Counted from the first letter of the stretch, positions 4,199-62,605 are shown. The stretch is DNA of 64,000 nucleotides from a virus (IMGVR_UViG_3300047189_000028), one strand, 5' to 3'. Program-made: numbers and translations. The notes: a model not told the origin generated them from the sequence alone.

Positions 4199-4300
4199 AT
4201 ATCACCTATTGGGTCAGTAAACAAATAGACATCACAATAACGTACAGAAGAATGCCGATTGTGACATTCCTCCAAAAATGAAACGGTTCGACTGGTTCGC

Positions 4301-4519
4301 TCATCGGTGAACATCGTCACGAGGATTTGGCTTCTCGCCAGAAGCACCCCAGTACGCAAGACGAATCAGCTCACCATCAGACAGCATGCAATACTCTCGT
4401 GTACACGCAAGACGGCGAGCCTCACGAAGGATTCGATCACCTTCGGGCGTTTCCGCCTTTCGCCCCCACAACGCTCTCGTCTCTGGTTTCGTTTCGTCTA
4501 CGATTTTCATAATCTTCAC
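4301..4519 (-). CDS. hypothetical protein (72 aa)
   Basis: ORF track. Confidence 0.4.
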   Translation of the reverse strand: MKIMKIVDETKPETRALWGRKAETPEGDRILREARRLACTREYCMLSDGELIRLAYWGASGEKPNPRDDVHR

Positions 4520-4631
4520 CTTTCTCCTGAGCTAAGTCACACAGCGACCAATTTCCAATACCCCAAAATCATGTCCCCGATTGCTGTTACCATCATCACA
4601 ATTCTCTACGGTATCGCAGAGCCTTCGACAA

Positions 4632-4925
4632 TTACTTGCGAATAAACCTCTCGTAAACAATCATACCGATTATGCACAGTGGGATCACAATAAACCACAG
4701 TTTGATAATCAATACGAGTGCAAGTCCTGCGCCACATGCGGCGAGCATTAACATCCCACCGCCACTGAGTGTCTTCCAAAATCCCTTCCAGCCAGAATGA
4801 AATACCATTCCGCAAGCAAGCAGCGCTGGGATACCAAATATCACCCATAAGATTGACATACTACGATCTCCTTGTGATTTCAACTTCCCAACCATTCTGT
4901 TTGCAGAACTCTTCCACCCCTTCAA
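4632..4925 (-). CDS. membrane protein (97 aa, 2 TM)
   Basis: ORF track; hydrophobic helices. Confidence 0.45.
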   Translation of the reverse strand: MKGWKSSANRMVGKLKSQGDRSMSILWVIFGIPALLACGMVFHSGWKGFWKTLSGGGMLMLAACGAGLALVLIIKLWFIVIPLCIIGMIVYERFIRK

Positions 4926-5289
4926 CTGTCACGTTGGAAAAGAAGCAGTCAGCCCATTGCTCCTCATTCCCTTCGAATACTTCTCCGCCTTCCACGATAA
5001 TATCAAGCTTCGGCAGTGGCTCAACAAATTCAGGTTGTTCGTACAATGGCTGCCAATAACCCAAATACCGTTCAAGTGCCTCAACAATTGGCTTCAGTAC
5101 AACATCAATTGGAGGATGGTGACTCGTTGTATAGTACACAGGTGCGATTGCATTCGGCGCAGCGTTCATATACGCACTGACACCGATTGGTCGGTTGTGC
5201 TCATATAAGATTCGCTTCAAGCTCTCATACGTCTGACATAGTACGAATGCAGCCTGTTCCGGATTACCGTTATAGTTCATCTGCATCAA
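4861..5289 (-). CDS. hypothetical protein (142 aa)
   Basis: ORF track. Confidence 0.45.
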   Translation of the reverse strand: MMQMNYNGNPEQAAFVLCQTYESLKRILYEHNRPIGVSAYMNAAPNAIAPVYYTTSHHPPIDVVLKPIVEALERYLGYWQPLYEQPEFVEPLPKLDIIVEGGEVFEGNEEQWADCFFSNVTVEGVEEFCKQNGWEVEITRRS

Positions 5290-5588
5290 ACAATCTCCAT
5301 TGTTCTCTCAACGATTGCCCATTCGATGTTCGACCACACGGTGATATTACCATCCTTACCCTTGATCTTGAGATTGCCAAGCGTACACCACGTATTCCAT
5401 GGATTCGACCTTGTTCGGCTGATTACTTCCAAAATGTCACCTTCGCGGTATACTTCAACCGGTGTGACAAACGAATGTAACACCCTAATCTTGTCCCCAG
5501 CTTTTGGTAGACGTGCAGGTGTATCCATAGTAATCGACATTCGCTTATTGCCGGCGCCATAAGCCTTTCTGATGATACTGAATCTCAT
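5286..5588 (-). CDS. hypothetical protein (100 aa)
   Basis: ORF track. Confidence 0.45.
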   Translation of the reverse strand: MRFSIIRKAYGAGNKRMSITMDTPARLPKAGDKIRVLHSFVTPVEVYREGDILEVISRTRSNPWNTWCTLGNLKIKGKDGNITVWSNIEWAIVERTMEIV

Positions 5589-5589
5589 A

Positions 5590-5912
5590 AAGTCTCCAAG
5601 AAGTGAAACGTTGTCAGCGCGAGGAATCGAACCTCGAATTCAAATGCGTGTTAACCGTTGACACTACCCCAACAACGTCATAAACAAATTCGCGATGAGT
5701 TAGGCTCATAACTCCACCTGACGGTCGGCTGCATCTGAGTCAGGTACCCAAGCCTTTCGTATGCAGTTGATGGCTCGGCGTCAATTCGCGTTCAGTATGT
5801 GCTGGGGGTCGAAACCCAGACAGGCCGCTAAGCCTTACACTGTTAAAGTAGTGTTGCCTCCTTCAGTGCTACGGTTTCGAACCCATATAGCATCGTGGCC
5901 ACACACCGAACA
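5590..5912 (-). ncRNA. promoter-driven structured non-coding transcript (no ORF of 60 aa or more), containing tRNA-like T-arm motifs and nested hairpins
   Basis: ~320 nt lies between the promoter at 5919..5947 and the next CDS. It contains GGTTCGATTCC (rc of 5622-5632) and a GGTTTCGAACC nested hairpin (5864-5906). Confidence 0.3.
5612..5673 (-). other. tRNA 3'-half-like fragment (T-arm CGAGG-TTCGATT-CCTCG plus a 7-nt acceptor-like strand); incomplete, no anticodon arm
   Basis: A canonical T-stem/loop is seen in the reverse complement. Folding as a full 72-nt cloverleaf fails: only ~62 nt and no anticodon arm. Confidence 0.25.
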
Positions 5913-13600: not shown

Positions 13601-14749
13601 TTAGCGTCTGACCGGCGGGCCTCGAACGATCGTGTGTTCGACTTTCATCTCGTTGTGGTGGCTGACATAATCGAACTCCTGTTCGATCCAGTCACCGTGT
13701 CGCTTTGAGATCAACCGATGTCTCTCTGGAGTGCCGACAACGACAGTTGTGTCGAGGTTTCGACCACTGAGAGGGTTGACAAGCTCCCACACGCGACAAT
13801 CGCTGTCCGGACGTGAAGCACGACCAATCACCTGGTTCAGTTGTGGATACGAACCATACGACCTGCCGAGGAAGACATCAGTGCAGCCCTTAACATCAAC
13901 GCCCTCATTGATCTTGTTGCAGTTCAGCAGGAACTGGATCTCACCACGACTGAAGCGATTCAACGTCTCATCCAACTCTTTGTTGGATTGAGTTAGGATT
14001 GCGATGGATTTCTTCTTCATCTTCGAGAGGTACTCGTTGACTTCAACGACTTCCTTCTTCGTGCGGAAGAACATCATCGTCTGACCGAACTCGTTGCCGA
14101 ATCGGTCAAGGATCATCTTCGTCACAGGAACCTTATCCTGGTGAGGAGTGTCAACGATTGTGTTCAGATACGTCGGAGCCAACCAGCCTTCAGCGACACA
14201 CTGTTCGCGACTGATCGGAGCGACAATCGACTCGAACTTAATCAGCATGCCGTCTGCACGATCAGGAGTCGCAGTCAGGCCGAGAATCGGCTTCTTGCCG
14301 AGTCGGTCCAAGCGGAACTGAATCGTCTGCATTGCCTCGTGGTGTGCTTCATCGATACAAGCGACGTCCCACACGAGACCTTTCGGAATGTCCTGAAATG
14401 CTGAGTGAGCGAAGAACTTGACGTTCGACGCATCAGCGTACGCTTCTTCAGCCTGAGTCAACAGTCTGTGCTTGTGAGCGACAAACAGAAGACGAAGGTC
14501 CTTGCCAGGCTTGATTCCAAGCGCTTTGCGAATCCGATCGGACGAAAAGATCAGACCAGACGTGACAGTCTTGCCAGCGCCAGTCGGCAGTTCGACGAGG
14601 ATACGCTTGACACCACGTTCGAGAGCGTCTTCCACCTGATTGCAGGCAGCCTTCTGGTACCAGCGAATCTCCTTCTCGCCGTACATGATGACTTCGTCTT
14701 CACCACCATCAATGGCTTCGAAGTCTTCATTCTCGATTTCCTGGCTCAT
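13601..14749 (-). CDS. SF2 DEAD/DEAH-box helicase
   Basis: Walker A ELPTGAGKT, DEAH box IDEAHH, and motif LGLTATP. Start at the MSQEIEN ATG (GGGAGA 6 nt upstream). Confidence 0.7.
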   Translation of the reverse strand: MSQEIENEDFEAIDGGEDEVIMYGEKEIRWYQKAACNQVEDALERGVKRILVELPTGAGKTVTSGLIFSSDRIRKALGIKPGKDLRLLFVAHKHRLLTQAEEAYADASNVKFFAHSAFQDIPKGLVWDVACIDEAHHEAMQTIQFRLDRLGKKPILGLTATPDRADGMLIKFESIVAPISREQCVAEGWLAPTYLNTIVDTPHQDKVPVTKMILDRFGNEFGQTMMFFRTKKEVVEVNEYLSKMKKKSIAILTQSNKELDETLNRFSRGEIQFLLNCNKINEGVDVKGCTDVFLGRSYGSYPQLNQVIGRASRPDSDCRVWELVNPLSGRNLDTTVVVGTPERHRLISKRHGDWIEQEFDYVSHHNEMKVEHTIVRGPPVRR

Positions 14750-14773
14750 TAACATCTCTCCCGTTTGACGATA

Positions 14774-40087: not shown

Positions 40088-41287
40088 TTAGTACGGAATG
40101 TCGTCGCCGAAGTCTTCGTCATCATCATTCATGTCGGCATCGAGCTGAGTGTGGTGCGGACGTCCGCCCTTCAGTGTACCATGCTCATGTAGATTGGCAA
40201 GATGGGTTGGATGTGGAGCAGTTGGATCGGCAGGCTTTGCACTTGCATCCTTCCAACCATATCCACCAGTTGACTTGCGATCGCCCTTAAGTACACGACG
40301 AATTGCGCTTGGAGTAACCATCGCCCACTTAGCAGCCTCCTCTACACTATGGAAGCAATCGATTACTTCACCATCAGAGGTATCAATTGCTTCGATTGGA
40401 CACTCGTTGTTGTCATCAGACTCAACAGCTGCAGCAGTAGCAACTTGATCATTGTCAAACTCATTCTGCTCGTCGTCGAAGTCATACTCGTCCTCGTCAT
40501 CCACCGGTGCCTTGTAGTTGTCCGAAGGCTGGAACGACCCCTCAAGCGGCTTCTCGTTCTTGTGCTCAAGTTCACCAATCACCTCGTAGCGGCAAGTACG
40601 ACCCTTCGTGTCGTTGTAGTCAGCAGGAATCGCAACAACATCAGCAGGGTTGATCTTGAGGATCACCGTGCGATTGCCCGAATCGTTGCCGAAATGCTGG
40701 AGATACTCACGCGAGCAGAAGTGCAAGCCAGCTGAACAGGTCTGCTTCGGATCTTCGTTGACCTGGTTGCGCTCCATTTCGACAACCGTACCGATCGCAT
40801 TGCTCATCGTGCCGGTGTAACAATCGGTGTAGTTGTTGCGAACACGCTTGTAAGAGAGGAAGTGACCATCTTCAGTGATAGGCAGCTTGCCCTTCTCGAG
40901 GAAGCCGTACAGTTCATTCACCGCACGGAAGCTCGGATTCTGCTGAAGGTTCGAAAGGAAGTTGCACATCGGTTCGATGTCAAACCCTTCATTCGCCATC
41001 GCAACGATGCGATCGGTCAGTGTGTTGTGAATCGGCTTGTCGTTGTAGTACACAACACCAGCCTTGAGTTCGACGTTCTTGACACCGCGCTTTGTGACCT
41101 TCTCGATCTTGGCCTTCACTGCCGCAACCGGAACAGCGAGCTTACGAGCCTTCTCAAACTGCTTCGCGTTGAGTGCTTCGATGATCTCGTTGTAGCGAGG
41201 GTTGGTAGGATAGACGGTAGTCGTTTCACCATTTGCAAAGGAAATCGTGAGATGATCCTTTGACTTCATATATGCTTCTGCAGTCAT
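40088..41287 (-). CDS. rIIB: rIIB-like protein
   Basis: The central region (ITEDGHFLSYKRV...CSAGLHFCSREYLQHFG...NPADVVAIPADYNDTKGRTCRYEV) parallels T4 rIIB (ITEDGYFYAWKVV...CSRGLHVCSKSYIRHFG...DYNDAKMRTCQYEV). It sits immediately downstream of rIIA. Confidence 0.8.
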   Translation of the reverse strand: MTAEAYMKSKDHLTISFANGETTTVYPTNPRYNEIIEALNAKQFEKARKLAVPVAAVKAKIEKVTKRGVKNVELKAGVVYYNDKPIHNTLTDRIVAMANEGFDIEPMCNFLSNLQQNPSFRAVNELYGFLEKGKLPITEDGHFLSYKRVRNNYTDCYTGTMSNAIGTVVEMERNQVNEDPKQTCSAGLHFCSREYLQHFGNDSGNRTVILKINPADVVAIPADYNDTKGRTCRYEVIGELEHKNEKPLEGSFQPSDNYKAPVDDEDEYDFDDEQNEFDNDQVATAAAVESDDNNECPIEAIDTSDGEVIDCFHSVEEAAKWAMVTPSAIRRVLKGDRKSTGGYGWKDASAKPADPTAPHPTHLANLHEHGTLKGGRPHHTQLDADMNDDDEDFGDDIPY

Positions 41288-41290
41288 GTG

Positions 41291-43525
41291 TTAACTCCTG
41301 TCGATGAGTTCAATGTAGTCGAACAAAACAGTCAAATCCTTTCCGCTGGAGTAACTGATGCTGCTAATATAGCTGAACATCGGATACACCTTGAATGCGT
41401 TGTCGTCAAAATATCCTGGAACCTTATTATCAAACAAACCAAGGCCCAAGTCCACATTTATTTGCCTGATGAACCTGACCATACGGCCAACCTTGCCAAA
41501 CTTTGCATGATCTTCAATGAGAGGCAGTACCGCTACCCTGAAAGCAGAATCCTTGTCAAGTTTCTGAACAAGTTTGACGAAATCGGAAGTGCTCTTTTCG
41601 GTGCAGCGAGTCTTGATTCCGTGTGCATCGCTCGTACGCTCGATTGCATCGAAGTAGTGAACCGCAGTGTCATATCCCTTAACAACTTCCTTGAGGACGT
41701 CGAAGAGATTGACCCAGTTCTCATTCTTCTTGATCTTACCGATCGCCTGCGAACCAAAACCGTAAATGTCCTTAACACTGTAATCAGTCTTGAGGTGCTT
41801 GTTGATCAGATCGATCGCAACCACGAAGTTGCCTTCGACATCACTGATCTTCCAGTTTACGTTCTCCAGAACACCATTCTTCATGAACGACACATGCGCG
41901 CCGTTCTGAAGGTGGAAGTAAAGGCCACCCTTCTCGAGGTCGATTGTAGGCGTACGCTTCCAAACGATGTACGGATTGTACTTACCTTGAATGCCACTGA
42001 ACTGAAAGATCGGAAGTTCGTTCTTGTACGAACCACGAGCACGTTCAGGAATCGGTGCATCCTTGCTAGTAAGCAAGAAATTGACATTGCCGAGCTCCTG
42101 GCGCAGGCGGGTTAGCTCAGTCAGGTAGTGCTGCTCAGTCCACACTTCTTTCTTGAGCATCTTTTGACCGCTCGGATCGTACACGACCTCTTCGAAATCC
42201 TTCTTGGGGCGAATAACGATCGCAGTCGGAGCATGCTGACCGTATGCCTTGTTGGCACGACGGACCCACTCCATCGCACGAGCAACACCACCAACCGGCA
42301 GATCGTTGTAGAATACAACGATATGTGACTCAGGTGTGACACCACTACCAAACGTCTTGCGCTTGACCGTGCGTCCTTCTTTTCCATGTGTCTGCTCAAA
42401 TACCGAAATCTCGTGACCAGTCAGCGAACCAACCTGCAGAGTGCCACCAATCTTGACGTACTCCCGAATCTGTGTGTTGGTCGTTTCTTTGACGAATTCC
42501 TTGAATAGGTTGCGGTTGCCAAAAATCTGTTCAGCAACCGTGTGGAGCTGAATCATGACATCCCAAAACGGCTTGTCTTTGAGAGCTTCAACTTGATCCT
42601 CAACCGACTTGAGAACACCCGCGCGGACAGCCTTGATCTTCTCGATCAGTGCAGCCTTCGAGCGATCATCGTAACGAATTTCCTCACGGTTGGCAGCAAC
42701 CTCAAGATCGCCGATGTCGAAGAATCCGACAATGTGTGCGTTCTCAAGGATCTTCGTGTCGCTTGCGCTGAGCTCCAGCTTGCTGATGTCAACCTTGTAG
42801 GCGACGTTGCCCTGTACTGCAGTCATTTTGCTGTAGTCGCCAGCGAAGTTCTTTTCGAACATCTTCCAACCTTCGCCCTCGAGGCGCTCTTTGGAAACCT
42901 CCGGCCACGAGAAATTGTGTGAACCAACAACTTCCGGCTTAATCGGGAACCAGCGAAGTGCCTTTGCAGTCTTTTCACTGAACACATACCAGTCGCTAGC
43001 AGCAACTGTAATACGAACTTCAAGACCATTGTGCTCATCAGTGTTGATCTCACCGAGACGAGCGATCGACGGAACACCATCTTCGTTAATGAACGCGGAG
43101 TATGTGCGGCGCATTCCATTGAAGCGTGACACAACCTCGAAAGCCTTTGTGTAACTGAACGGACTCTTCGATCCGAGGCCGAGAGCACCAATGAACGCGT
43201 TGCTGTTTGACTTCGTGGAATCAAAATACGTGGTGTAGAGCTGCATGACGTCTTCGTCAGACAAGCCAGTACCGAAATCACGAACGTGGAACCACGGCTC
43301 TAGTGAATTCGGAAGGTGAATCTCAAACGCCTGATCAGCATTGCCAGCTGCGACGTGCGCATCCCAGGCATTGCAAGACAGTTCGCGGACAATCGCAAGT
43401 TTCGGGTCGGTATAGAGGCCGGATGATAGAATGTCAAAGGCCTTGGCAGTCGTCTTGATACTGAACGCCCGTTCGGACGCAACACCAAATCGCTCAATAT
43501 CATTACGTTCGGTATGAAGTTTCAT
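41291..43525 (-). CDS. rIIA: rIIA-like protein (histidine-kinase-like ATPase fold)
   Basis: N-terminus AFSIKTTAKAFDILSSGLYTDPKLAIVRELSCNAWDAH and FIGALGLGSKSPFSYT closely match T4 rIIA ([20 protein letters not shown]...VRELITNMIDAH; FIGGFGLGSKSPFSYT). Confidence 0.85.
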   Translation of the reverse strand: MKLHTERNDIERFGVASERAFSIKTTAKAFDILSSGLYTDPKLAIVRELSCNAWDAHVAAGNADQAFEIHLPNSLEPWFHVRDFGTGLSDEDVMQLYTTYFDSTKSNSNAFIGALGLGSKSPFSYTKAFEVVSRFNGMRRTYSAFINEDGVPSIARLGEINTDEHNGLEVRITVAASDWYVFSEKTAKALRWFPIKPEVVGSHNFSWPEVSKERLEGEGWKMFEKNFAGDYSKMTAVQGNVAYKVDISKLELSASDTKILENAHIVGFFDIGDLEVAANREEIRYDDRSKAALIEKIKAVRAGVLKSVEDQVEALKDKPFWDVMIQLHTVAEQIFGNRNLFKEFVKETTNTQIREYVKIGGTLQVGSLTGHEISVFEQTHGKEGRTVKRKTFGSGVTPESHIVVFYNDLPVGGVARAMEWVRRANKAYGQHAPTAIVIRPKKDFEEVVYDPSGQKMLKKEVWTEQHYLTELTRLRQELGNVNFLLTSKDAPIPERARGSYKNELPIFQFSGIQGKYNPYIVWKRTPTIDLEKGGLYFHLQNGAHVSFMKNGVLENVNWKISDVEGNFVVAIDLINKHLKTDYSVKDIYGFGSQAIGKIKKNENWVNLFDVLKEVVKGYDTAVHYFDAIERTSDAHGIKTRCTEKSTSDFVKLVQKLDKDSAFRVAVLPLIEDHAKFGKVGRMVRFIRQINVDLGLGLFDNKVPGYFDDNAFKVYPMFSYISSISYSSGKDLTVLFDYIELIDRS

Positions 43526-52369: not shown

Positions 52370-52437
52370 CGTGTCTCTCCTATAAATAGTATTTATAAGT
52401 AATGTGCGATAAGTTGGACACAACAATAAGGGTTATA

Positions 52438-53934
52438 ATGAGAAAGAAAGTAACGATAAACAAATCAACATTTGATGTTCCAGCCTTTTCACAAAACGAG
52501 ATTAAAAACGAAGGTAAGGTATACACTCCTGATGTGGTAACTCAGGATATTGTCGCTCGCTTTCCATATTTTGTTGATCCAAGTCGTGTTGTTGCTGATC
52601 CGTCTTGTGGTCAAGGTAATTTACTTCGTGTTGTGTTTCAACACCGACTTACGCAAACCAAGTCAGCGGATCAAGCATTTGAAAATATTAGAGGATTTGA
52701 GCTTGATCCGGTTGGTGTTCAAAGGGCTCACGAATATTTTATTGAAGAGGGTGTTTCAAAAAAACTCGTAAAGCAGAATATTGTTCAATGTAACACACTA
52801 GAACGCTACACTAAGTACACTGGAACAATTGATGATGTACTTGGAAATCCACCATATGTTAGATCGCCGGGTAATCTTCCGGCTTCAATTACAATGAACG
52901 ATAACTTAGTGGATGCGTTCTTTCAGGTTGGTATGGAATTATTGAAGCCTGGTAACGACCATCACCTTGTGTACATCGTACAGGATTCGTTTATTACAAA
53001 TGAAATTTCACCATTGCGTGAATATTTTCAACAGTTTAATATTAAGACGCTTGAACATCGTTTTGATTACTCACAAGCATTTCGTCGTCACGACATTGCT
53101 GTAGATATTGCTCTTGTTGAACTAACTAAGGGACCACAACAAGAATTTGTTGATGTTAGTAGACACATTCCATTCAAAATGCCAGCAGCATCCTTTCAAA
53201 CGAAAGAAAAATGGTTAATATATCCTTCCGTCATCAATGATCTTGCGGTTAAGCTTGGATCGGTTGGATACCCTCTGTCTTCTTTATGTACTATTAAGAA
53301 AGGACGAACAGTAAACCAGAATGGTGCTGTGCCAGCATCTTACGGAAGCACAACATTTAGTAAGAAAAAAACTAAGGAATTTAGTATTCCGGTGTTGAGC
53401 GAACCAAACACAGGTTATTTTTTTCCTGAAAGTCTAACGCCATTAGTTTTTGGCAAGTCAGTTGATAAGGTAATAGATAAACCGTTTGAACCTTTTGTTG
53501 TATTACCATACTTTACAAGTAAATTTCGGTTCTGTCTTATTGAACAAGACCTACTTACGACTCCATTGCTCTATACACTATCAGGTCCCAATGTAAAGTG
53601 GTTACTTCCTATTCTTAATTGCTCAGCAGTTGATTTTATGATCCGGTATCACACAAAGAGTCGTGACACTGGATACGAATTTAAGAGTTCAACATTTGAT
53701 AGGATTATCATTCCTACACTTGATTCTAAGGGAAGAAAACAAATGCTCCACCTCGTAGAGCTTGTTCGTTCTGGAAAGATAAGTAAAGAAGACTGTGATC
53801 GCTATGTAATGGATAATGTCTTCAAGTTATCCAAAGAAGAACAGGAACTAATTGAAAAATGTAAGGTCTTCTGGTTTAAGAAGAATGTCAAGACTTTACT
53901 TGCTGATCCTGATTTTTTAGCGACATTATCTTAG
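52438..53934 (+). CDS. gamma-class N6-adenine DNA methyltransferase with C-terminal target-recognition region
   Basis: Motif X VYTPDVV, motif I ADPSCGQGNLL, motif IV GNPPY, in that order. Confidence 0.7.
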   Translation: MRKKVTINKSTFDVPAFSQNEIKNEGKVYTPDVVTQDIVARFPYFVDPSRVVADPSCGQGNLLRVVFQHRLTQTKSADQAFENIRGFELDPVGVQRAHEYFIEEGVSKKLVKQNIVQCNTLERYTKYTGTIDDVLGNPPYVRSPGNLPASITMNDNLVDAFFQVGMELLKPGNDHHLVYIVQDSFITNEISPLREYFQQFNIKTLEHRFDYSQAFRRHDIAVDIALVELTKGPQQEFVDVSRHIPFKMPAASFQTKEKWLIYPSVINDLAVKLGSVGYPLSSLCTIKKGRTVNQNGAVPASYGSTTFSKKKTKEFSIPVLSEPNTGYFFPESLTPLVFGKSVDKVIDKPFEPFVVLPYFTSKFRFCLIEQDLLTTPLLYTLSGPNVKWLLPILNCSAVDFMIRYHTKSRDTGYEFKSSTFDRIIIPTLDSKGRKQMLHLVELVRSGKISKEDCDRYVMDNVFKLSKEEQELIEKCKVFWFKKNVKTLLADPDFLATLS

Positions 53935-55112: not shown

Positions 55113-55291
55113 TAGACCACATCCTTCTTTTTAATCGTTCCACATTGCTCGCATTGTAGAACGTATCGTGTTCCAACTTTACATAATTCACCACCATCTT
55201 CTGGATGGCGATAAACTTTAAACACAGTCTCATCAATGGTTTTCCACTTATGAGCGTGTCCAAAAAGTAGTAGTTGAATTACTTTCCACAT
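55112..55291 (-). CDS. small zinc-ribbon protein (59 aa)
   Basis: TAATG coupling with the upstream gene; CKVG...CEQCG. Confidence 0.35.
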   Translation of the reverse strand: MWKVIQLLLFGHAHKWKTIDETVFKVYRHPEDGGELCKVGTRYVLQCEQCGTIKKKDVV

Positions 55292-55695
55292 TACAAAATT
55301 TCCTGAATCTTACTCACAACTTCGTCAAGTGAATTGACAATTGTTGTAGAGTGATAGATTAACCATGGTGATAGTCTTGCATCCCTTGATGTCCATACCA
55401 CAACTGGAATACCAAGCGTCCAAGCATAGAATACTTCCATACTTGTACCAACTGATGGCTTGTCGTAGTTTACGAGAACAATATCACAGTTACGGATATC
55501 ACGCTTATCAAGATCAACAATCTCACGATAATTGGAAAGTTCTTTACCACGATAGTCCCTCTTCATTGGATCTACGGAAGCAGGAAAATGTATCTTTACT
55601 ACTTCGCGCCAATTCCTTGCTTCTTCATTCGTGCAGCCATTAATAGGACCACACAAATAAACTTTAATTGTTTCCGGATTCATTTCAATCTCCAC
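55291..55695 (-). CDS. nucleoside 2-deoxyribosyltransferase / DNPH1(Rcl)-family protein
   Basis: KVYLCGPI...D...GTSMEVFYAWTLGIPVVVW matches the family pattern (YLAGP...GTAMELGYA.ALGKPV) with the catalytic Glu in GTSME. Confidence 0.55.
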   Translation of the reverse strand: MEIEMNPETIKVYLCGPINGCTNEEARNWREVVKIHFPASVDPMKRDYRGKELSNYREIVDLDKRDIRNCDIVLVNYDKPSVGTSMEVFYAWTLGIPVVVWTSRDARLSPWLIYHSTTIVNSLDEVVSKIQEIL

Positions 55696-56561: not shown

Positions 56562-56598
56562 AAAAAAAGGGGTGCGTGAGAATCTCCCACGCACCCCT
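56562..56598 (-). terminator. strong rho-independent terminator GGGGTGCGTG-loop-CACGCACCCC plus T7 on the minus strand
   Basis: Read directly; after the SPFH gene stop. Confidence 0.7.
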
Positions 56599-56624: not shown

Positions 56625-57866
56625 TTACTTCTTATCACCAGCCTTTACAGATAGATCAAGATTCAAATCTTTGGCAGCCTTGGCTGTCATGATTTCCATA
56701 AACGTCTGTGCACCATTTGCACCAGCACCCGAACCACCACCAAACACTGTGTTTGGTACGATGTTACCCTGGTACTTGGCAAACGCGTCTGCCCACGCAG
56801 ACTGCACTTCCTTGTATGTCTCAAGCTTCTGCGTCAACGCGCCGTCAGCATTAATGACAAGACGCTTCTTTTCAGCATCGCCCTGTCCTTCGAGAATCTG
56901 TTGCTGCTTGTAAGCTTCAGCCTGCTGAGCTGCAAGGATCGCAACCTGCTTGTTCTTCTCGGCAAGAGCAATTTCCTTCGCGTTGATTGTTTCCTGTTCC
57001 CACTTTGCCTTCGCGGCGTTGGCTTCACCCTGCTTAGCAGTTGTGATCGCATCCTGTTCAGCACGACGAGCGTTCGCCTGTGAAATCTGAACCTGAGTCG
57101 TCGCCTTCTGTCGCTCAGCAATCTGACCTTCGACAATATCGTTGTAGCGAATCTTGTTGATCGTTACAGGATACAGACGAATGCCGTGATCAGTAATCTG
57201 CGACGGAGCTGAACGAGCAGGATGACCATCAGTACCCACAACGATCTCAACAATCTTTGCTTCCTTGTCGGTGTTGGTCAGCGGATCGTGCTGAATAACA
57301 CTCTTCGTGTGAGTCAGGTACGGACCATTGACGAGCTGGTCATCAATGTACTGAGGGATCTCAGGACGACGTTCAGCGGACGATTCCGTTGACGACATCG
57401 TAGGACCGACAGTGTAAACAACCTTCTCAATCATTGGACGAATCAGCTGCTGCTCAATAGCTTCGAAGCTACCGAACTCGCGATGGATCTGGATCACCTT
57501 TGCAGTGTCGAGTGGCATATCCCACGAAACGACGCCGGATAAGTGCGCAGTACCACCATCGTTAAATCGAGTCTCAATCGACTCATCGACCTTACTGCCC
57601 TGATCCTTCGAAGAGCTGAAGGAATACTGAGCACGACGAGGATACTTCGTGTACTTGCCGAATCCCAACCACTTCCAGCCAGAGTCCGTGTATACGGAAA
57701 GACTGCCGCTGACTGGGCTCTGGACAACCATGATCTCATGAGCATCCACGTTTTCATACATATTCATCGCCATGACCGGAATACCGATCACTACGACCGC
57801 TGCCACCACGATTCCAAGAATGCCGAATCGGGAAAGAAGCGAAGTGCGACCTTCAGTTGTAGACAT
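56625..57866 (-). CDS. SPFH/band-7 domain membrane protein with long C-terminal coiled coil
   Basis: N-terminal TM, band-7-like core, Ala/Gln-rich coiled coil. Confidence 0.55.
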   Translation of the reverse strand: MSTTEGRTSLLSRFGILGIVVAAVVVIGIPVMAMNMYENVDAHEIMVVQSPVSGSLSVYTDSGWKWLGFGKYTKYPRRAQYSFSSSKDQGSKVDESIETRFNDGGTAHLSGVVSWDMPLDTAKVIQIHREFGSFEAIEQQLIRPMIEKVVYTVGPTMSSTESSAERRPEIPQYIDDQLVNGPYLTHTKSVIQHDPLTNTDKEAKIVEIVVGTDGHPARSAPSQITDHGIRLYPVTINKIRYNDIVEGQIAERQKATTQVQISQANARRAEQDAITTAKQGEANAAKAKWEQETINAKEIALAEKNKQVAILAAQQAEAYKQQQILEGQGDAEKKRLVINADGALTQKLETYKEVQSAWADAFAKYQGNIVPNTVFGGGSGAGANGAQTFMEIMTAKAAKDLNLDLSVKAGDKK

Positions 57867-57892
57867 AATATAACTCCTGTGTTATTGAAAAA

Positions 57893-58183
57893 TCAAGACT
57901 TCTGTTCAGGCTGCGTAGGAGCAGTCTCAACAGATGTTGGGTGCAGGGCGGCCTGCCTCTCGGCGAGTTTCTGTTTGAGAGAAACAACTGTAGATTCAAG
58001 CTCTGTGTCATCAAGCTGTGCTGTGACTTCCTGCTTTTCAGCGAGAAGTGCCGTACGTGACTTGCGAAACATTGGGAACAGAATCGTTCCGGTGAGTAGC
58101 GGAGCTAGTACCTGAGTGATGACAAAAGCAAGACCGAGGACAATCAAAAGCAATCTGAAAAATAAAAGCGCGGCCATATTCAT
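57893..58183 (-). CDS. small membrane protein upstream of the SPFH gene (NfeD-like operon position)
   Basis: TM helix plus coiled coil; TTAGGAGAATGAATATG RBS; operon partner of SPFH. Confidence 0.45.
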   Translation of the reverse strand: MNMAALLFFRLLLIVLGLAFVITQVLAPLLTGTILFPMFRKSRTALLAEKQEVTAQLDDTELESTVVSLKQKLAERQAALHPTSVETAPTQPEQKS

Positions 58184-58248
58184 TCTCCTAAAATAGAGGG
58201 GAGCAAATGCTCCCCTCTATTATCAATCAAACGACTTATCGAGTCAAC

Positions 58249-59178
58249 TTACTTCTTTGTAGGAGTAACGACCGGGATTTCGTACCAAGGCAGAACACCA
58301 TGGTCATTCGCATCAACCGACTGCCAGTTCGGCGAACCGCTGTCCTGAAGCTCAGCAACGTGCGTCACGAAGCAGTCACGGAAGTGCTTCTGAGCAAGGA
58401 CTTTGGCAGGCGTGCTGTACTTGCGTGTCAGCAAGGTAGCAATCGGAGCCAGAGTCTTGAGTGGGCCGCTCGTGATACCAGGATAGTTGATCGTAGCTGG
58501 ACGATACACACCACTAACACGGCTAGCAATTGACTCACCAATCGGAAGGATCTTGACTTCACCACGAGCAAACTTCGTGATGTTCGGCAGAGGAGCCGCA
58601 CCCACGAAAATTGCAGCAGCAATGTCGCCGCTCTTCAGAGCAGCAATCACCTGGTCACCAGTGTCGTAAGGAACAACGGTGAACCCACCCTCGCCCTGAC
58701 CCTGCAGAATGCGTGCCGTATAGACACCACCACCAGCAGCACCGACCCTGTAGCCACGCACATCAGCGAGGCTGTTAAACTGCGCCTTGCCAAAGCTGAA
58801 CGTACCGTTCTGACCAGTCTTCGACTCAACAAGAGCGATCACATGGATCGGCTCAGGGTAGAGAGCGACGAGCGTCTGGAACTTCGCATACGAACTGTCA
58901 GCCTGCGCATTGGCAAAGTAGACGTCGCTGTGAAGGAATGCGGCCTGTGCCTTGTTATTCACGAGAGCGTCGAGGTTACCAGGCGCGCCGCCGGTCACGC
59001 CGCGAGCCTGCTGAATGTTGAAATCGTCTGTCGAACAGACACCGATAATCTCACTCAGCATCTTCTGATACGTACCGCTTGAACTATCTGCAGCAATCGT
59101 GATGCTGCTGCCGTTGTCGTCCGCGAAGGCCGCAGTCGACAGAGCGACGAGGAACAATGATGCAATAAACTTCTTCAT
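58249..59178 (-). CDS. periplasmic solute-binding protein, TAXI-family TRAP-receptor-like
   Basis: Signal peptide. ITIAADSSSGTYQKM...AAFLHSDVYFA...YPEPIHVIAL...VRGYRVGAAGGGVYTARIL...GDIAAAIFVGAAP...VKILPI follows the TAXI pattern. Confidence 0.55.
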   Translation of the reverse strand: MKKFIASLFLVALSTAAFADDNGSSITIAADSSSGTYQKMLSEIIGVCSTDDFNIQQARGVTGGAPGNLDALVNNKAQAAFLHSDVYFANAQADSSYAKFQTLVALYPEPIHVIALVESKTGQNGTFSFGKAQFNSLADVRGYRVGAAGGGVYTARILQGQGEGGFTVVPYDTGDQVIAALKSGDIAAAIFVGAAPLPNITKFARGEVKILPIGESIASRVSGVYRPATINYPGITSGPLKTLAPIATLLTRKYSTPAKVLAQKHFRDCFVTHVAELQDSGSPNWQSVDANDHGVLPWYEIPVVTPTKK

Positions 59179-59215
59179 ATAAAACTCCTATCTATCAGTT
59201 GTGGTAAAACTAAAC

Positions 59216-59356
59216 TCAATTGATCCGAAGACCGCCATCTTGCGATGTGCTTACTGGCGGGCTGTCCTCGGAGTTATTACTTCCACCTTTTAGCAGGAAC
59301 ACTCCCACTGCAAGGGCCAAGAGCAACAGCAAAGTTGCGATTATTCGAAATTTCAT
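59216..59356 (-). CDS. small membrane/lipoprotein-like peptide (46 aa)
   Basis: ATGA-coupled to the upstream gene; hydrophobic N-terminus. Confidence 0.3.
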   Translation of the reverse strand: MKFRIIATLLLLLALAVGVFLLKGGSNNSEDSPPVSTSQDGGLRIN

Positions 59357-60114
59357 TTGCGAGCGACTCCTACACGCGTCTTGTCCGTGAAAGACGCCTC
59401 GATTACATTAGACGTCTGGTGAGTCAAAGCAGGCGTTGCATCAGTGTCATCAGGACCACTGAGTGCAGCAGCCGTCTCGAGTTCAGCAAACGCACGGTTC
59501 ATGGATGTGTACACAGCATCGACAGCTGTATCCGCCTTGAGCTTCTCGTAGAGATCACCAGTATCCATTCCAGCAGCCTTATTGGCAGCCTGAGCGGCCT
59601 GTGACATCTCCCAATAAGCCTTCATCTCGTCGAGCTTTGCATCACCTTCGTTGAGTGAATGCTCGGCATCACGAAGAGCCTGATACTTACGCTTGACGAG
59701 TTCGGTCATAGCAGCGAGCTGAGCTTCAAACTCAGGTGCACGTGCTGGAAACTTTTTCTTGAAGCCGTCAACCTTCGTTGCAAAGTTCTTCGCAGCAGTG
59801 GCGGCAGTTGTGACGTTTTCCTTAAAGGACTCGAAAGCCTTGCGCTTTTCGATCAGGAGATTTGTCAATGTCTCGATTGGATTGACCATCGCTTCAGAGA
59901 CAATTGCCTTGACCTTCCAGTTGGCAAACTTCATTGAAACAACTGGAGCGAGGTTGATAATCGCAACACCTACAACAGCTGCAAGTGCAAGGCCAATCAA
60001 GCCTTTAACGGCGAGGAACACGAACGGTGAGATCACCGCCGCACCAACGAGGCCGAGACCCCACTTGGCATACTTGGCGATCTTGTCGCGCTTGACATTG
60101 ATATCATCAGACAT
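59353..60114 (-). CDS. membrane protein with extended coiled-coil domain (253 aa)
   Basis: Two N-terminal TM helices followed by an alpha-helical Ala/Lys/Glu-rich region. Confidence 0.5.
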   Translation of the reverse strand: MSDDINVKRDKIAKYAKWGLGLVGAAVISPFVFLAVKGLIGLALAAVVGVAIINLAPVVSMKFANWKVKAIVSEAMVNPIETLTNLLIEKRKAFESFKENVTTAATAAKNFATKVDGFKKKFPARAPEFEAQLAAMTELVKRKYQALRDAEHSLNEGDAKLDEMKAYWEMSQAAQAANKAAGMDTGDLYEKLKADTAVDAVYTSMNRAFAELETAAALSGPDDTDATPALTHQTSNVIEASFTDKTRVGVARK

Positions 60115-60128
60115 ATAAAACTCCTAAA

Positions 60129-60620
60129 TTAGTCGGAAGAAGAACTTGAATCGGAACTACTGTCGCTCGACGAATAATCATTTGTGTCGCTCGACGAATA
60201 ATCATTTCGGTCAGCATTGTCCTCAATTTGGGGCGAAGAATCAACAACTGGTGAACCATTGGCATCCCAACTTCCACTTGCACCCGCACCAGAAAACTGA
60301 CCGCCACCACCTACAAACGCAGGTGCGTCATCAGTCTGTGTATTCCGGTTGTCCGAGCTGTTCAGTAAGTTGTCAACCAGCATAGCCGTTGTTAATGTTG
60401 AGACTAGACCATCATCTTCGTCGCGAACATAACCTGGTGGATTGATACGACGATTCGGAAACGTATATGGTCCTACCGCGCCAACAGTTGAGAGATGGGG
60501 TGCCAACTTGATTTTGTTCGCTGTATTCAGTCTGCGTTTTGCTCGGTAATGAAGAATCAGTACAGCAACACAAACGAGGCTGACACTTAGTGAAATCAAA
60601 AACCAAAAATTGGTATCCAT
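60129..60620 (-). CDS. membrane-anchored protein with Ser/Asp-rich low-complexity C-terminus and tandem repeat DYSSSD
   Basis: 21-bp direct DNA repeat at 60163-60208. Confidence 0.45.
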   Translation of the reverse strand: MDTNFWFLISLSVSLVCVAVLILHYRAKRRLNTANKIKLAPHLSTVGAVGPYTFPNRRINPPGYVRDEDDGLVSTLTTAMLVDNLLNSSDNRNTQTDDAPAFVGGGGQFSGAGASGSWDANGSPVVDSSPQIEDNADRNDYSSSDTNDYSSSDSSSDSSSSSD

Positions 60621-60684
60621 TTTTCAACTCCTATAAAGAGGGGCGCACGGAGCGCCCTCTTTATTTTGTTGCCCACCAGTTTGA

Positions 60685-62155: not shown

Positions 62156-62605
62156 TTACAGCTCCCAAGGAAATTCAATCCAGTTTGCATCTTTCGGAAT
62201 CGTCTGCCAAATATAGTCTGGTGTGATTACAGCGCCTTCCTTATGATAAAGAGCAGCCGTTCGAACTACATTTCCGTTCAGACGATAAAACTTGTCGACT
62301 TCTTTCATAGTATACCCTGAATCACAGATATCGTCAACGATTAGGATATCCCACGTGATTGGGAACTCTGGCAACACATTTTCGTACTCTTTATACTCTC
62401 CGTTTCCTTTCTTTGATGAGTATGACACTGGAAACATTTTGACCTGGAGCAGATGTGACATAATTACGGCGGGAACTAGGCCACCACGCGCAAGGCCAAT
62501 AATCGCTTTTGGCTTGTAGTTGGTATCTTGTGACACTTTAATTGAAAGGAACGCAGCCCCCTTCTCTACTTGTGTCCACGATGGATGTACTAATGTTGCT
62601 TTCAT
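62156..62605 (-). CDS. gpt: xanthine-guanine phosphoribosyltransferase (Gpt)-like type I PRTase
   Basis: IIGLARGGLVPAVIM, PRPP loop ILIVDDICDSGYT and C-terminal NWIEFPWEL parallel E. coli Gpt (IIAVSRGGLVPGALL; FIVIDDLVDTGGT; TWIEQPWDM). Confidence 0.65.
   Translation of the reverse strand: MKATLVHPSWTQVEKGAAFLSIKVSQDTNYKPKAIIGLARGGLVPAVIMSHLLQVKMFPVSYSSKKGNGEYKEYENVLPEFPITWDILIVDDICDSGYTMKEVDKFYRLNGNVVRTAALYHKEGAVITPDYIWQTIPKDANWIEFPWEL

Follow-up and report, generated by a model that had tools for sequence, protein, structure and literature searches.

Introduction

In the LuxP-LuxQ, TorT-TorS and ChvE-VirA systems, the ligand occupancy of a binding protein in the periplasm is signalled to a membrane protein with a cytoplasmic output domain. 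A periplasmic binding protein without a transporter is also found in phages, namely the cyanophage PstS, which is thought to serve the host PstCAB. Among the SPFH proteins, QmcA and YqiK, which are partnered by NfeD proteins, have the SPFH domain in the cytoplasm. For the TAXI binding proteins, a membrane partner other than the TRAP Q-M permease is described in the TAXI-GltS system of Bordetella pertussis (bioRxiv 10.1101/2024.11.27.625746), and phage SPFH/Band 7 ORFs of unknown function have been noted since 2006 (PMC1524935; PMC13239085, PMC10269572).

Here, we analyse a locus with genes of both families in a window of 64,000 nt from the uncultured large phage IMGVR_UViG_3300047189_000028. 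That the window comes from a phage is supported by rIIA and rIIB, by a fragment of a homing endonuclease, by a DNA helicase PHROG and by many relatives in IMG/VR. We find that the interval is a six-gene envelope operon, made up of two separately inherited cassettes (A and B) and one variable gene. Cassette A is a widespread module that is shared by phages, a megaplasmid and bacterial MAG contigs.

Results and Discussion

The six genes occupy positions 56625-60620 on the minus strand, with gaps of -4 to 65 nt between them. A sequence-only reading had previously placed five genes here. These are all real, in position and strand alike, and they are indeed directed to the envelope, TAXI309 having a signal peptide and cc253, SD163, sm96 and SPFH413 hydrophobic anchors. 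What had been overlooked is sm46 (59216-59356, minus strand), an equivalent of which is conserved in all related loci examined. The unit contains no transporter gene, as that reading had already pointed out for the binding protein.

On the upstream side, between the gene p175 and SD163, a consensus scan gives a terminator-like GC hairpin (60641-60657, minus strand) of six G-C pairs with a T-rich stretch behind it. On the downstream side, 27 nt past the stop codon of SPFH413, there is a strong hairpin of the intrinsic-terminator type (56568-56598, minus strand) with a 14-bp stem, nine G-C pairs and a T7 tail. These two terminator-like elements mark the boundaries of the unit. The 65-nt gap between TAXI309 and sm96 holds a sigma-70-like promoter match on the minus strand (TTGACT-17-GATAAT, 58219-58247, 10/12 matches in the consensus scan), which might let transcription of cassette B begin internally; promoter-like matches in the region are not more numerous than in shuffled sequence, and the match is therefore weak. 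The scan also calls a mirror-image hairpin on the plus strand at 60640-60658.

We now turn to cassette A, which consists of cc253 (59353-60114, 253 aa), sm46 and TAXI309 (58249-59178), in this order on the minus strand. The comparison set comprised about 140 related loci; 31 dereplicated loci have both cc and TAXI. In 30 of the 31, cc lies directly upstream of TAXI, and in one (L018) downstream. All 30 cc-upstream loci have a 40-60-aa ORF with the architecture of sm46 in the interval from cc to TAXI, and such an ORF is also found in L061, L062 and L064. The TAXI loci without cc are either cut by a contig edge or belong to L046 and L047, natural deletion variants from the same population as L033, which means that the cassette is accessory and dispensable. 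Neighbour clustering across the loci gave no other widely conserved neighbour, and there is no recurrent TRAP or ABC permease beside the cassette in the about 31 dereplicated loci. As judged from these comparisons, cassette A is a self-contained accessory module of three genes. It appears to be undescribed so far.

The cassette is carried by the jumbo phages RP12, RP31, phiRSL1 and Motura. Homologues of TAXI309 occur in these four, in the jumbo phages FLC1-1B, FLC4-3B and RsoM2USA, and in more than 120 metagenomic clusters, so that the earlier remark that such a protein is unusual in a phage is only partly true. Non-phage carriers are the Burkholderia megaplasmid pMBR01 and MAG contigs, including those of candidate-phyla bacteria (one of 893 kb is Wolfebacteria-like), and identity is 55-70% across contigs assigned to CPR bacteria, Acidobacteria and Proteobacteria. 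In RP12, the TAXI gene adjoins a ModA-like binding protein and an ABC permease, a pair for which neighbour clustering found no equivalent in the other loci. On pMBR01 the cassette lies among genes for a RES toxin, NERD nuclease and tyrosine recombinase (integrase). In L020 it comes directly after rIIA-rIIB, with a different SPFH subfamily behind it. Genes of NAD salvage (NAMPT/NAPRTase with or without NMNAT-Nudix) adjoin it in phiRSL1, L021 and L031, and housekeeping-type genes surround it on the MAG contigs from Wolfebacteria and Gammaproteobacteria.

The assignment of TAXI309 as a TAXI-type binding protein is borne out by PF16868 (NMT1_3; 36.1 bits, gathering score 27) and by an AlphaFold model with a pLDDT of 90.6, whose seven best Foldseek matches (E 3e-15 to 3e-12) are the seven TAXI proteins of solved structure. 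It also matches phrog_6856 (3e-30), and the family profile matches 1US4, 8U79, 8S4J and 9IBO. The TIGR02122 profile, which had been named as a check, scores 52.7 bits and stays under the NCBIfam cut-off of 84.35; we assign TAXI309 to a divergent TAXI clade, apart from the standard TRAP-TAXI subunits. The signal peptide is of type I and ends in AFA, followed by DD. A type I signal peptide without a lipobox is common to all homologues, CPR MAG contigs included, and retention at the membrane would thus need a partner. The pocket-region motifs SSSGTY, GGAPGNL, HSDV and YPEPIH are invariant in the family, as are the cysteines C48 and C269, and the constancy of the motifs across hosts argues for a genuine, constant ligand. 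Of four glutamate-binding positions of VcGluP/TtGluBP, as mapped by inference from a partial profile alignment and the residue list in PMC11574862, Tyr37 and Glu109 are kept and two are changed (Gln to His83 and Ser to Ala65).

The cc253 protein has a basic N-terminus, then a hydrophobic hairpin of 49 residues, whose two TM helices are linked by K-G, and an invariant NPIET, after which come three long helices (79-121, 126-180 and 188-218) and a disordered tail with a K-V-x-V-like motif at its end. The predicted topology is N-in/C-in, with a periplasmic loop of only 2-3 residues. The protein is without an enzymatic, DNA-binding or recognisable catalytic domain, and its fold matches are generic for long helices. 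In the natural fusions P0394 and P0427, cc is joined to a hydrophobic segment and a different extracytoplasmic domain, as would suit a two-compartment device of which cc is the 'inside' half. The chimeric ORF P0470 has cc together with NAPRTase.

The ORF of sm46 (46 aa, single-pass) overlaps the cc253 stop by 4 nt. It encodes MKFRII, a TM helix, a Ser/Pro/Asn-rich linker and a conserved C-terminal G-[ILV]-x-[LIVF]-[NQH] (here GGLRIN), and is predicted to be N-in, C-out. Across the loci, the N-terminal part of sm (the TM-helix end) tracks the clade of cc (Fisher p=1.8e-4), and the tail motif tracks that of TAXI (Fisher p=4e-5), both values being uncorrected for phylogeny; all four pairings of cc clade and TAXI clade occur. 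We propose that sm46 is the adaptor of cassette A. The covariation of the two halves of sm could also be a product of linkage only, if recombination takes place within the low-complexity linker. It should be noted that all topologies given here, also those of SD163 and SPFH413 below, were derived solely from hydropathy and flank charges (positive-inside rule).

Cassette B consists of sm96 (57893-58183, 96 aa) and SPFH413 (56625-57866, 413 aa), both on the minus strand. The latter had rightly been recognised as an SPFH protein: it scores 38.5 bits against PF01145 (gathering score 23.6), a profile that all 27 aligned relatives match as well, and it belongs with phrog_11908 (5.4e-47). There are at least 1483 homologues, mostly on contigs of 100-480 kb and many on contigs of 200-480 kb. 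A TM anchor (about 15-37) and the SPFH/Band 7 domain (40-272) are followed by an Ala/Gln/Glu/Lys-rich helical region (about 250-345) and a Gly-rich C-terminus. A sequence/profile search against solved structures (HflK/C, stomatin, prohibitin and flotillin chains) gave no significant similarity. The predicted orientation is N-in/C-out, which gives the SPFH domain an HflK/C-like placement on the periplasmic side, and the N-flank of the SPFH protein in L070 is strongly basic.

The partner sm96 begins with 39 hydrophobic residues that contain the motif L-I/A-P-x-L-T-x-x-x-L-F-P-M-F-R-K, and continues with a charged helical segment and a disordered tail that is not OB-fold-like. Homologues lie directly upstream of SPFH in L001, L061, L062 and L063, and a crude scan places some small TM-bearing ORF there in about 38 of 75 viral loci, 19 of them with the motif. 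Hence sm96 is a conserved, dedicated small partner of the SPFH413 family. The sequence-only reading had called it NfeD-like; there is no match to PF01957/NfeD in Pfam or NCBIfam at E<=0.1. The likeness to NfeD-SPFH operons extends to the dedicated small upstream partner, but neither to the NfeD domain nor to the orientation of the SPFH domain, predicted here to be periplasmic.

Among 74 IMG/VR SPFH loci, cc is found within 5 kb in one and TAXI in none, and L001 and L063 have sm and SPFH alone. Seen from cassette A, SPFH follows only in the window lineage (L061, L062) and in L020, and most trio loci are without SPFH nearby. Cassette B is a pair separate from cassette A, common in large phages and usually without A, and the view of the locus as one joint five-gene system is not supported.

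The remaining gene, SD163 (60129-60620, minus strand, 163 aa), encodes an N-terminal TM helix (about residues 5-24), then KRRLNTANK, a disordered region and the Ser/Asp/Tyr-rich tail NDYSSSDTNDYSSSDSSSDSSSSSD, and is predicted to be N-out, C-in. It has no match in Pfam, PHROG, NCBIfam or PADLOC. The gene is missing from the closest relative, L062, and analogous genes with a TM helix and an S/D tail occur at other positions in L061 (199 aa) and L070 (338 aa); in L070 the order is cc, S/D-tail protein, sm96-like gene, SPFH. In P0365, a cc protein is fused to an S/D-rich tail. SD163 is the lineage-variable component of the unit. It would be a membrane protein of facultative occurrence, with its polyanionic tail in the cytoplasm, and is found repeatedly alongside these cassettes in the window lineage.

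The best reading of these results, to which we give somewhat less than even odds, is that cassette A encodes a non-transport complex spanning the inner membrane and cassette B a periplasm-facing, HflK/C-like SPFH assembly. The secreted TAXI309, with its TAXI fold, would bind a specific small ligand in the periplasm, and the periplasmic C-terminal tail of sm46 would tether it at the membrane or relay its state. The TM helix of sm46 would pack against the two-helix membrane hairpin of cc253, whose three-helix domain would be a cytoplasmic, membrane-associated scaffold. We infer these contacts among the three proteins, as well as their topologies and biological role. Such an arrangement would couple a periplasmic signal to the cytoplasmic scaffold, or merely anchor a periplasmic receptor to it, and the benefit would go to the mobile element. 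Cassette B would provide a phage-specific SPFH assembly that probably corrals or shields inner-membrane proteins during infection.

The true partner of TAXI309 could instead be a host permease. TAXI309 would then be a nutrient-scavenging auxiliary protein that raises the number of periplasmic binding proteins or changes their specificity and passes its ligand to a TAXI-TRAP QM, GltS-type or other permease, with cc and sm only aiding its biogenesis or positioning. A working binding-protein fold with invariant pocket-region motifs is what one would expect in this case, the NAD-salvage neighbours and P0470 fit a metabolic role (e.g., import of nicotinate or another aromatic carboxylate or amide), and the RP12 cassette does have a ModA-like binding protein and ABC permease as neighbours. 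Permeases of more than one kind are also known as partners of TAXI proteins (bioRxiv 10.1101/2024.11.27.625746). We nevertheless consider this unlikely, as the strict co-inheritance of cc and sm and the missing recurrent permease are left unexplained, the TIGR02122 score is under the cut-off, and docking would have to be unusually tolerant, since permeases would differ among CPR, Acidobacteria and Proteobacteria hosts. Superinfection exclusion, which the sequence-only reading had suggested as one possibility next to receptor masking and envelope remodelling, or anti-phage defence, by a block of adsorption or DNA entry or by periplasmic sensing of a second infection that triggers a membrane response, also strikes us as improbable. 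The invariant small-molecule pocket is no obvious sensor for phage particles or DNA, a recognisable effector (nuclease, NADase or pore-forming domain) is absent, and some MAG contigs have the cassette in housekeeping-type surroundings; the earlier suggestion of a link to phage defence found no counterpart among known systems, PADLOC giving no significant match for the six proteins. What speaks for it, circumstantially, is the accessory distribution over phages, megaplasmid and MAG contigs, the deletion variants within the L033 population, the toxin, nuclease and recombinase setting on pMBR01, the position in L020 right after rIIA-rIIB, genes tied to phage-phage exclusion, and the fact that two unrelated SPFH subfamilies came to sit just downstream of cassette A.

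The arrangement in L020, with a different SPFH subfamily behind the trio, would also suit one obligate six-gene system, in which an SPFH-organised membrane platform holds the binding-protein complex. The single unit between terminator-like hairpins, the gene order repeated in L062 and L061, the composition of L070 and the P0365 fusion point the same way. Such a system is quite unlikely, though, given that cc is absent within 5 kb in 73 of the 74 SPFH loci and TAXI in all, that either cassette is found on its own (L001 and L063 on one side, most trio loci on the other), and that SD163 is missing in L062; moreover, the SPFH proteins of the window, L061, L062 and L070 are 55-72% identical, so the synteny may be simply inherited. 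We find it very unlikely that cc253 is a BAR, ESCRT-III or PspA-like scaffold which, with SPFH and with TAXI as regulator, stabilises or remodels the inner membrane and keeps it intact and energised over a long infection. The weak BFVD matches to Snf7 (E=0.055) and PspA (E=0.26) are of a type that three-helix coiled coils give in general, the hhalign probability for E. coli PspA is 1.6%, and there are no PspA_IM30 or Snf7 Pfam matches. The proximity of the cassette to SPFH and rII genes would be in line with such a device, but the strict linkage to a binding protein would be unexplained.

Comparison with Known Systems

The TAXI-TRAP binding proteins (TtGluBP 1US4/1US5, VcGluP 8S4J/9IBO and the Ehrlichia 'immunogenic protein' 4DDD) resemble TAXI309 in fold (Foldseek E 3e-15 to 1e-13, TM 0.61-0.67) and in being secreted, and share with it the Gly-x-Tyr and Tyr-Pro-Glu pocket motifs by profile alignment (PMC11574862). 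The identity to solved TAXI proteins is, however, only 17-18%, and Gln93 of VcGluP, the residue most critical for glutamate binding, is apparently His in TAXI309 (PMC11574862). Their systems have a fused Q-M permease and are without cc and sm genes, whereas the TAXI309 family is always paired with both and has no adjacent permease of this kind in the about 31 dereplicated loci. GltS is a multi-pass secondary transporter, while the partners of TAXI309 add up to three TM helices and a large coiled coil in the cytoplasm, a non-transporter architecture. In LuxP-LuxQ, TorT-TorS and ChvE-VirA, the receptors dock the binding protein by a periplasmic domain and have a kinase as output; cc253 has its short periplasmic loop and no recognisable catalytic domain, and cassette A would require the separate 46-aa protein as a bridge. 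Cyanophage PstS is a stand-alone auxiliary gene with a known host ABC system, in contrast to TAXI309, which is locked in a three-gene cassette that is also present on plasmid and MAG contigs.

For cassette B, the closest parallels are the NfeD-SPFH operons (YbbJ-QmcA, YqiJ-YqiK and YuaF-FloT) and HflK/C-FtsH (see also PMC12048511 and PMC12005517). In the former, a small membrane gene lies directly upstream and is co-inherited, as with sm96-SPFH413, but NfeD proteins have an OB-fold domain that sm96 is without. HflK/C is type II and periplasm-facing, with an N-terminal anchor, SPFH domain and coiled-coil region, and SPFH413 is predicted to be alike; HflK and HflC are a gene pair, whereas cassette B has one SPFH gene. 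The SPFH ORFs of T4-like, T5-like and crAss-like phages (44RR ORF098c, Aeh1 ORF064c, RB43 ORF139c, pVp-1 and crAss001) show 26-31% identity to SPFH413 by tblastn, and relative to them SPFH413 is a distinct subfamily (phrog_11908) with its own conserved small partner.

Organization of the locus

Comparative genomics splits the minus-strand interval 56625-60620 into two cassettes. One consists of a coiled-coil membrane protein (cc), a small single-pass protein (sm) and a secreted TAXI-type binding protein, and is called the trio below; the other is a small membrane protein followed by an SPFH protein. The sequence-only reading had treated the interval as one module of five envelope genes. It contains six ORFs, all on the minus strand, the overlooked one being sm46. 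In the order of the strand, they are SD163 (60129-60620, 163 aa), cc253 (59353-60114, 253 aa), sm46 (59216-59356, 46 aa, with a 4-nt overlap with the cc253 stop), TAXI309 (58249-59178, 309 aa), sm96 (57893-58183, 96 aa) and SPFH413 (56625-57866, 413 aa).

The intergenic gaps of -4 to 65 nt, together with the flanking hairpins, make the six genes look like one transcription unit. On the same strand, SD163 is closely preceded by a GC hairpin (60657-60641) that has a T-rich tail, and a strong terminator-like hairpin with a 14-bp stem and a T7 tail (56598-56568) lies 27 nt past the SPFH413 stop. The candidate internal promoter match before sm96 (58247-58219, minus strand) is weak, since such matches are no commoner in the region than in shuffled sequence.

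The single module is not supported by comparison with related loci. Among the SPFH413-family loci of IMG/VR, a cc gene is found within 5 kb in one of 74 (L070) and a TAXI gene in none, and two loci (L001 and L063) have the small protein and SPFH pair alone. The trio and an SPFH gene are adjacent in two settings only. One is the lineage of the window, represented by L062 (72-91% identical to the window) and L061 (36-63%). The other is the T4-like contig L020, with the order rIIA, rIIB, cc, sm, TAXI, a 62-aa ORF and a 272-aa Band_7 protein that shows no BLASTP similarity to SPFH413. The occurrence of two different SPFH subfamilies beside the trio is suggestive; it reflects only two independent events, and large phages commonly have SPFH genes.

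The cc protein of the window is 56-60% identical to those of L020 (6910-7833) and L021 (6914-7846), while its TAXI protein is only ~30% identical to theirs. For L061 the relation is reversed, with 36% for cc and 63% for TAXI. The cc and TAXI clades are thus reshuffled among genomes, which implies recombination within the cassette.

The binding-protein cassette

The trio is widespread and strongly conserved, and it moves between phages, plasmids and contigs of bacterial MAGs. A set of 60 TAXI loci was collected from annotated phage records and from viral, genome and metagenome collections. By tblastn against the phage records, homologues of TAXI309 were found only in jumbo phages of Burkholderiales hosts, namely RP12, RP31, phiRSL1, FLC1-1B, FLC4-3B, RsoM2USA and Motura. 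The orthologous set in RP12 is ORF193-195. In the protein database the TAXI309 homologues form 229 clusters, the best 120 of which are 54-88% identical, and for the cc family by itself there are 660 clusters at 50% identity.

HMM searches over all ORFs gave 31 dereplicated loci with both cc and TAXI, and cc is immediately upstream in 30 of them; in the remaining one, L018, it is downstream. Every cc-upstream locus has between the two genes a 40-60-aa ORF with the architecture of sm46, whose C-terminus has the conserved motif G-[ILV]-x-[LIVF]-[NQHK]. An sm-type ORF was also found in L061, L062 and L064, and in two retrieved loci the 40-60-aa gene had been left uncalled.

The earlier observation that the TAXI protein has no transporter partner holds. 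A TRAP Q-M gene is absent from the window unit and none recurs in the ~31 dereplicated loci, and clustering of the ORFs that flank the trio revealed no other widely shared neighbour and no recurrent TRAP or ABC permease. ABC genes beside the RP12 TAXI gene are noted in PMC5468394. As the missing transporter they were rejected, because they encode a ModA-like binding protein and a permease, a pair without an equivalent among the clustered neighbours of the other loci. ABC ATPase genes near the trio on MAG contigs were also discarded as partners, as they lie several kb off in an ordinary bacterial context.

TAXI loci without cc are due to contig-edge cuts, except for L046 and L047. Compared with L033, these two are 99.5-99.9% identical outside a 1.55-kb deletion (L033 6555-8102), which takes out cc, sm and the first ~60 TAXI codons, and their contigs come from other samples than L033. 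They are natural cassette-loss variants in one population, and the cassette is therefore dispensable.

Outside phages, the full trio is present at 4073-5912 of pMBR01 (NZ_CP053612.1, L064), a 356-kb megaplasmid of the cultured isolate Burkholderia sp. MBR-1 (WP_181709832, WP_181709831 and WP_181709830). It is situated among a RES NAD+ phosphorylase toxin, a NERD nuclease and a tyrosine recombinase, a context that looks like a mobile or defence island. Candidatus Wolfebacteria MAG contigs and an unlabelled 893-kb metagenome contig have the same trio locus, beside ribosomal proteins L3/L4 and GroEL/ES. Further MAG contigs with the trio are labelled Candidatus Lloydbacteria, gammaproteobacterium (a 513-kb contig), Terracidiphilus, Gemmatimonadales, Acetobacteraceae and Bryobacteraceae. 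Since the collections that gave these carriers were matched only by MAG and metagenome contigs, some of them may represent phage DNA that was mis-binned.

In the distantly related carriers phiRSL1 (L002, 7344-10399), L021 (3350-5926) and L031 (531-2009), the cassette adjoins genes of NAD salvage (NAMPT/NAPRTase with or without NMNAT-Nudix), and in the database protein P0470 the N-terminal 200 residues of cc are joined to a C-terminal NAPRTase fragment. This adjacency could be chance in auxiliary-gene islands, or it could hint at a ligand or a pathway.

TAXI309 itself is a true binding protein of the TAXI fold, though a divergent one. It matches PF16868 (NMT1_3) with 36.1 bits against a threshold of 27, and scores 52.7 bits with TIGR02122 (TRAP_TAXI), under the cut-off of 84.35. 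The family profile matches the solved structures 1US4, 8U79, 8S4J and 9IBO with E values of 3e-7 to 9e-5. The AlphaFold model (pLDDT 90.6) has the two-lobe TAXI (cluster F) fold, and TAXI proteins make up all seven of its best Foldseek matches in the PDB (E 3e-15 to 3e-12, TM 0.61-0.67).

The protein starts with a type I signal peptide, MKKFIASLFLVALSTAAFA followed by DD, and 29 TAXI homologues, including those on CPR MAG contigs, also have type I signal peptides, by eye without a lipobox. Motifs in the pocket region and two cysteines (C48 and C269) are invariant across the family. The ligand residues were mapped by inference from a partial family-profile alignment and the VcGluP binding residues listed in PMC11574862; on this mapping Tyr (in G-x-Y) and Glu (in Y-P-E) are retained, and the key Gln appears to be replaced by His and a Ser by Ala. 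The two replacements suggest that the ligand is probably not glutamate. Longer TAXI homologues were considered as candidate sm-TAXI fusions, and none is one, the added length being over-called starts or C-terminal tails.

The coiled-coil protein cc253 has no Pfam family and belongs to phrog_27316. After a basic N-terminus comes a hydrophobic hairpin of 49 residues, whose turn takes up 2-3 residues; an invariant NPIET motif and three long helices follow, and the chain ends in a disordered tail. The predicted topology is N-in, C-in. For sm46, which consists of MKFRII, a TM helix, a Ser/Pro/Asn-rich linker and GGLRIN, it is N-in, C-out. Some cc fusions (P0394, P0427; L065 5001-6725) have a signal-peptide-like hydrophobic segment and then a ~330-aa beta-rich domain with no Pfam match, so a TAXI protein may not be the only type of extracytoplasmic domain with which cc can pair.

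SD163 has an N-terminal TM helix, a basic stretch and a long Ser/Asp/Tyr-rich tail, predicted to be cytoplasmic, and it matches no family in Pfam, PHROG, NCBIfam or PADLOC. TM-helix proteins whose tail is rich in Ser/Asp lie beside cc and SPFH genes in the window (60129-60620), L061 (5975-6574) and L070 (3664-4680). Their tails have interspersed Trp or Tyr (SSSW, DYSSS), and positions and architectures differ in this lineage. In the database protein P0365 such a tail is fused to a cc protein. As SD163 is not present in L062 and similar proteins stand elsewhere in L061, L070 and P0365, it appears to be a recurrent but facultative companion.

The SPFH pair

The SPFH assignment is confirmed, with residues 40-272 of SPFH413 matching PF01145 at 38.5 bits against the gathering score of 23.6. 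The protein also matches phrog_11908, Band_7 is matched by all 27 aligned relatives, and the family comprises 1483 or more proteins, many of them on very large contigs. A hydrophobic segment at residues 7-38 forms an N-terminal membrane anchor, and an A/Q/E/K-rich helical stretch seen in the sequence at ~250-345 forms a C-terminal coiled-coil region. The anchor has a basic N-flank (2 Arg) and an acidic C-flank, which by the positive-inside rule, as a prediction only, places the N-terminus inside and the SPFH domain in the periplasm, like that of HflK/C. The homologue in L070, whose N-flank has six Lys/Arg, agrees with N-in. Against solved structures, the single sequence had no match at E<0.01, and the family profile found only coiled-coil prohibitin matches at E>0.1.

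The upstream protein sm96 had been called NfeD-like. A small partner does precede the SPFH gene, and its homologues are co-inherited with it; the NfeD identity was rejected, as sm96 has no NfeD (PF01957) match at E<=0.1 in Pfam or NCBIfam. Its residues 40-96 are charged and of low complexity. Homologues that immediately precede the SPFH gene in L001, L061, L062 and L063 have the motif L-I-P-x-L-T-x-x-x-L-F-P-x-F-R/K-K. In a crude scan of 75 viral loci, about half had a small TM-bearing ORF upstream of SPFH, and 19 of those had the motif. The simplest reading of the pair is a putative SPFH ring that faces the periplasm and has a small subunit of its own.

Genomic surroundings

The window is phage DNA. 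It has homologues of rIIA (41291-43525) and rIIB (40088-41287, PHROG match over residues 6-247), a helicase PHROG, an exonuclease, a DNA methylase and homing-endonuclease fragments, and as relatives it has IMG/VR contigs 100-480 kb long. When the 5.3-kb region was compared by Megablast with 50,697 phage records, it had no match, so the window is without a close cultured relative among them.

Residues 300-343 of the rIIB-like ORF (40088-41287) match the NUMOD-like domain of I-HmuI, which suggests a fused or decayed homing-endonuclease remnant at its C-terminus. A gene for an N6 DNA methyltransferase (Eco57I-like) at 52402-53934 on the plus strand stands inside a long run of minus-strand genes and adjoins treble-clef zinc-finger/DUF723 ORFs that are homing-endonuclease-like. 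The stretch ~8000-30000 may be a compositionally distinct block, with a GC content of 0.50-0.57 versus 0.37-0.45 in much of the remainder; both strands have long overlapping ORFs there, and PHROG or Pfam matches are nearly absent apart from the helicase at 13601-14755. The idea that the six-gene interval itself is of foreign base composition was dropped, its GC of 0.46-0.55 being similar to that of rIIA and rIIB.

Two flanking ORFs were assigned by eye, one at 62156-62605 as phosphoribosyltransferase-like (motif ILIVDDICDSGYT) and one at 55291-55695 as nucleoside 2-deoxyribosyltransferase-like. Pribosyltran, NUDIX and NADAR genes are also close by in the relatives L061 and L062, and these neighbours together place the operon in a nucleotide/NAD-metabolism neighbourhood.

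Possible mechanisms

The reading that we tentatively favour, at somewhat less than even chance, is that the trio forms a tethered-receptor complex that does not transport, with its role left wide (sensing, exclusion or metabolic control). The helical domain of cc would be cytoplasmic, with nearly no periplasmic exposure, and the tail of sm would be periplasmic; sm would then be the only element able to link the secreted TAXI protein to cc. Where the TM helix of sm ends, 20 of 23 loci of one cc clade have a Tyr, versus none of six of the other. The sm tail has G-I/L-x-L/I in all 25 loci of the main TAXI clade, while divergent clades have [FM]-K-[DN]-L-K-[IV]-[ND] or other endings, and all four combinations of cc and TAXI clades occur. 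This covariation of the two sm halves is consistent with the tethered receptor. It is important to note that it is not proof of contact, since sm lies between both genes and recombination in its linker would give the same pattern.

A more far-reaching version, to which we give perhaps one chance among several, is that the trio is an unrecognised class of membrane device dependent on a binding protein, a horizontally exchanged metabolite sensor. The C-terminal peptide of sm, a 40-60-aa adaptor, would here act as a tethered ligand or anchoring strand for TAXI, and the captured receptor would control the hairpin-anchored cytoplasmic cc scaffold. Jumbo phages, megaplasmids and CPR bacteria would swap the cassette horizontally, and with it they would detect an extracellular metabolite of universal occurrence and adjust their infection or exclusion behaviour; cc could also partner other extracytoplasmic domains, as in the P0394-type fusions.

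Several other explanations have to be weighed against the tethered receptor. With a genuine TAXI fold and no permease of its own, the secreted protein might feed a permease of the host, which we hold to be unlikely beside its two constant membrane partners. An exclusion or defence function, which would go well with the island on pMBR01, is doubtful to a like degree; in PADLOC-DB 2.0 the six proteins gave only coiled-coil matches of cc253 to ZorA and PD-T4-6 (E=0.017), and the other five gave none. Superinfection exclusion, receptor masking or envelope remodelling had been the original proposal. The sequence-only reading is largely borne out in what it observed and partly in how it was interpreted.

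The compact transcription unit would suit an obligate system of all six genes, which the separate distributions of the two cassettes make improbable. Least probable of all, and very unlikely, is a membrane-stabilising scaffold: cc253 has the long helices for one, and its hhalign comparison with PspA gave a probability of 1.6%.

Relation to known systems

We found no description of the cc, sm and TAXI cassette in full-text searches of the literature, and for the function of phage TAXI or SPFH proteins such searches gave annotations and speculation only. The trio is a binding-protein system whose architecture fits no described class, and the current categories (transporter, defence system, lysis gene) do not account for it. 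It comprises a large conserved TAXI clade (> 120 clusters at 55-88% identity) with two small membrane partners and without a recurrent permease gene, and its spread over jumbo phages, a megaplasmid and candidate-phyla MAG contigs points to a portable cell-envelope function. Its function is directly testable, since cultured carriers exist: the Ralstonia phages RP12, RP31 and phiRSL1, the Achromobacter phage Motura, and Burkholderia sp. MBR-1 with pMBR01.

The SPFH pair belongs to the known, functionally unexplained phage SPFH proteins. The frequent SPFH genes of large phages have been noted since 2006 and never explained, and a phage-specific family with its own small partner, now defined, gives a start for asking why large phages often encode them. 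SPFH ORFs of T4-like phages are noted in PMC1524935 (2006), and on phage SPFH function two later papers (PMC13239085, PMC10269572) offer only speculation. HflK/HflC differ in having paired K and C genes, whereas the window unit has one SPFH gene, without a detectable sequence relationship to HflK/HflC. NfeD-SPFH operons have the same arrangement as sm96-SPFH413, as an analogue and not as a matter of family membership.

As for the trio, TAXI proteins are to our knowledge the least understood branch of the binding-protein-dependent uptake systems, and orphan binding proteins of phages are usually dismissed as metabolic helper genes. Among the closest known systems are the cyanophage PstS and binding-protein-dependent sensors such as LuxPQ. 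The binding proteins of TAXI-TRAP transporters have their fold in common with TAXI309, but the trio is without their Q-M partner. A precedent for a partner other than TRAP is the TAXI-GltS system (bioRxiv 10.1101/2024.11.27.625746).
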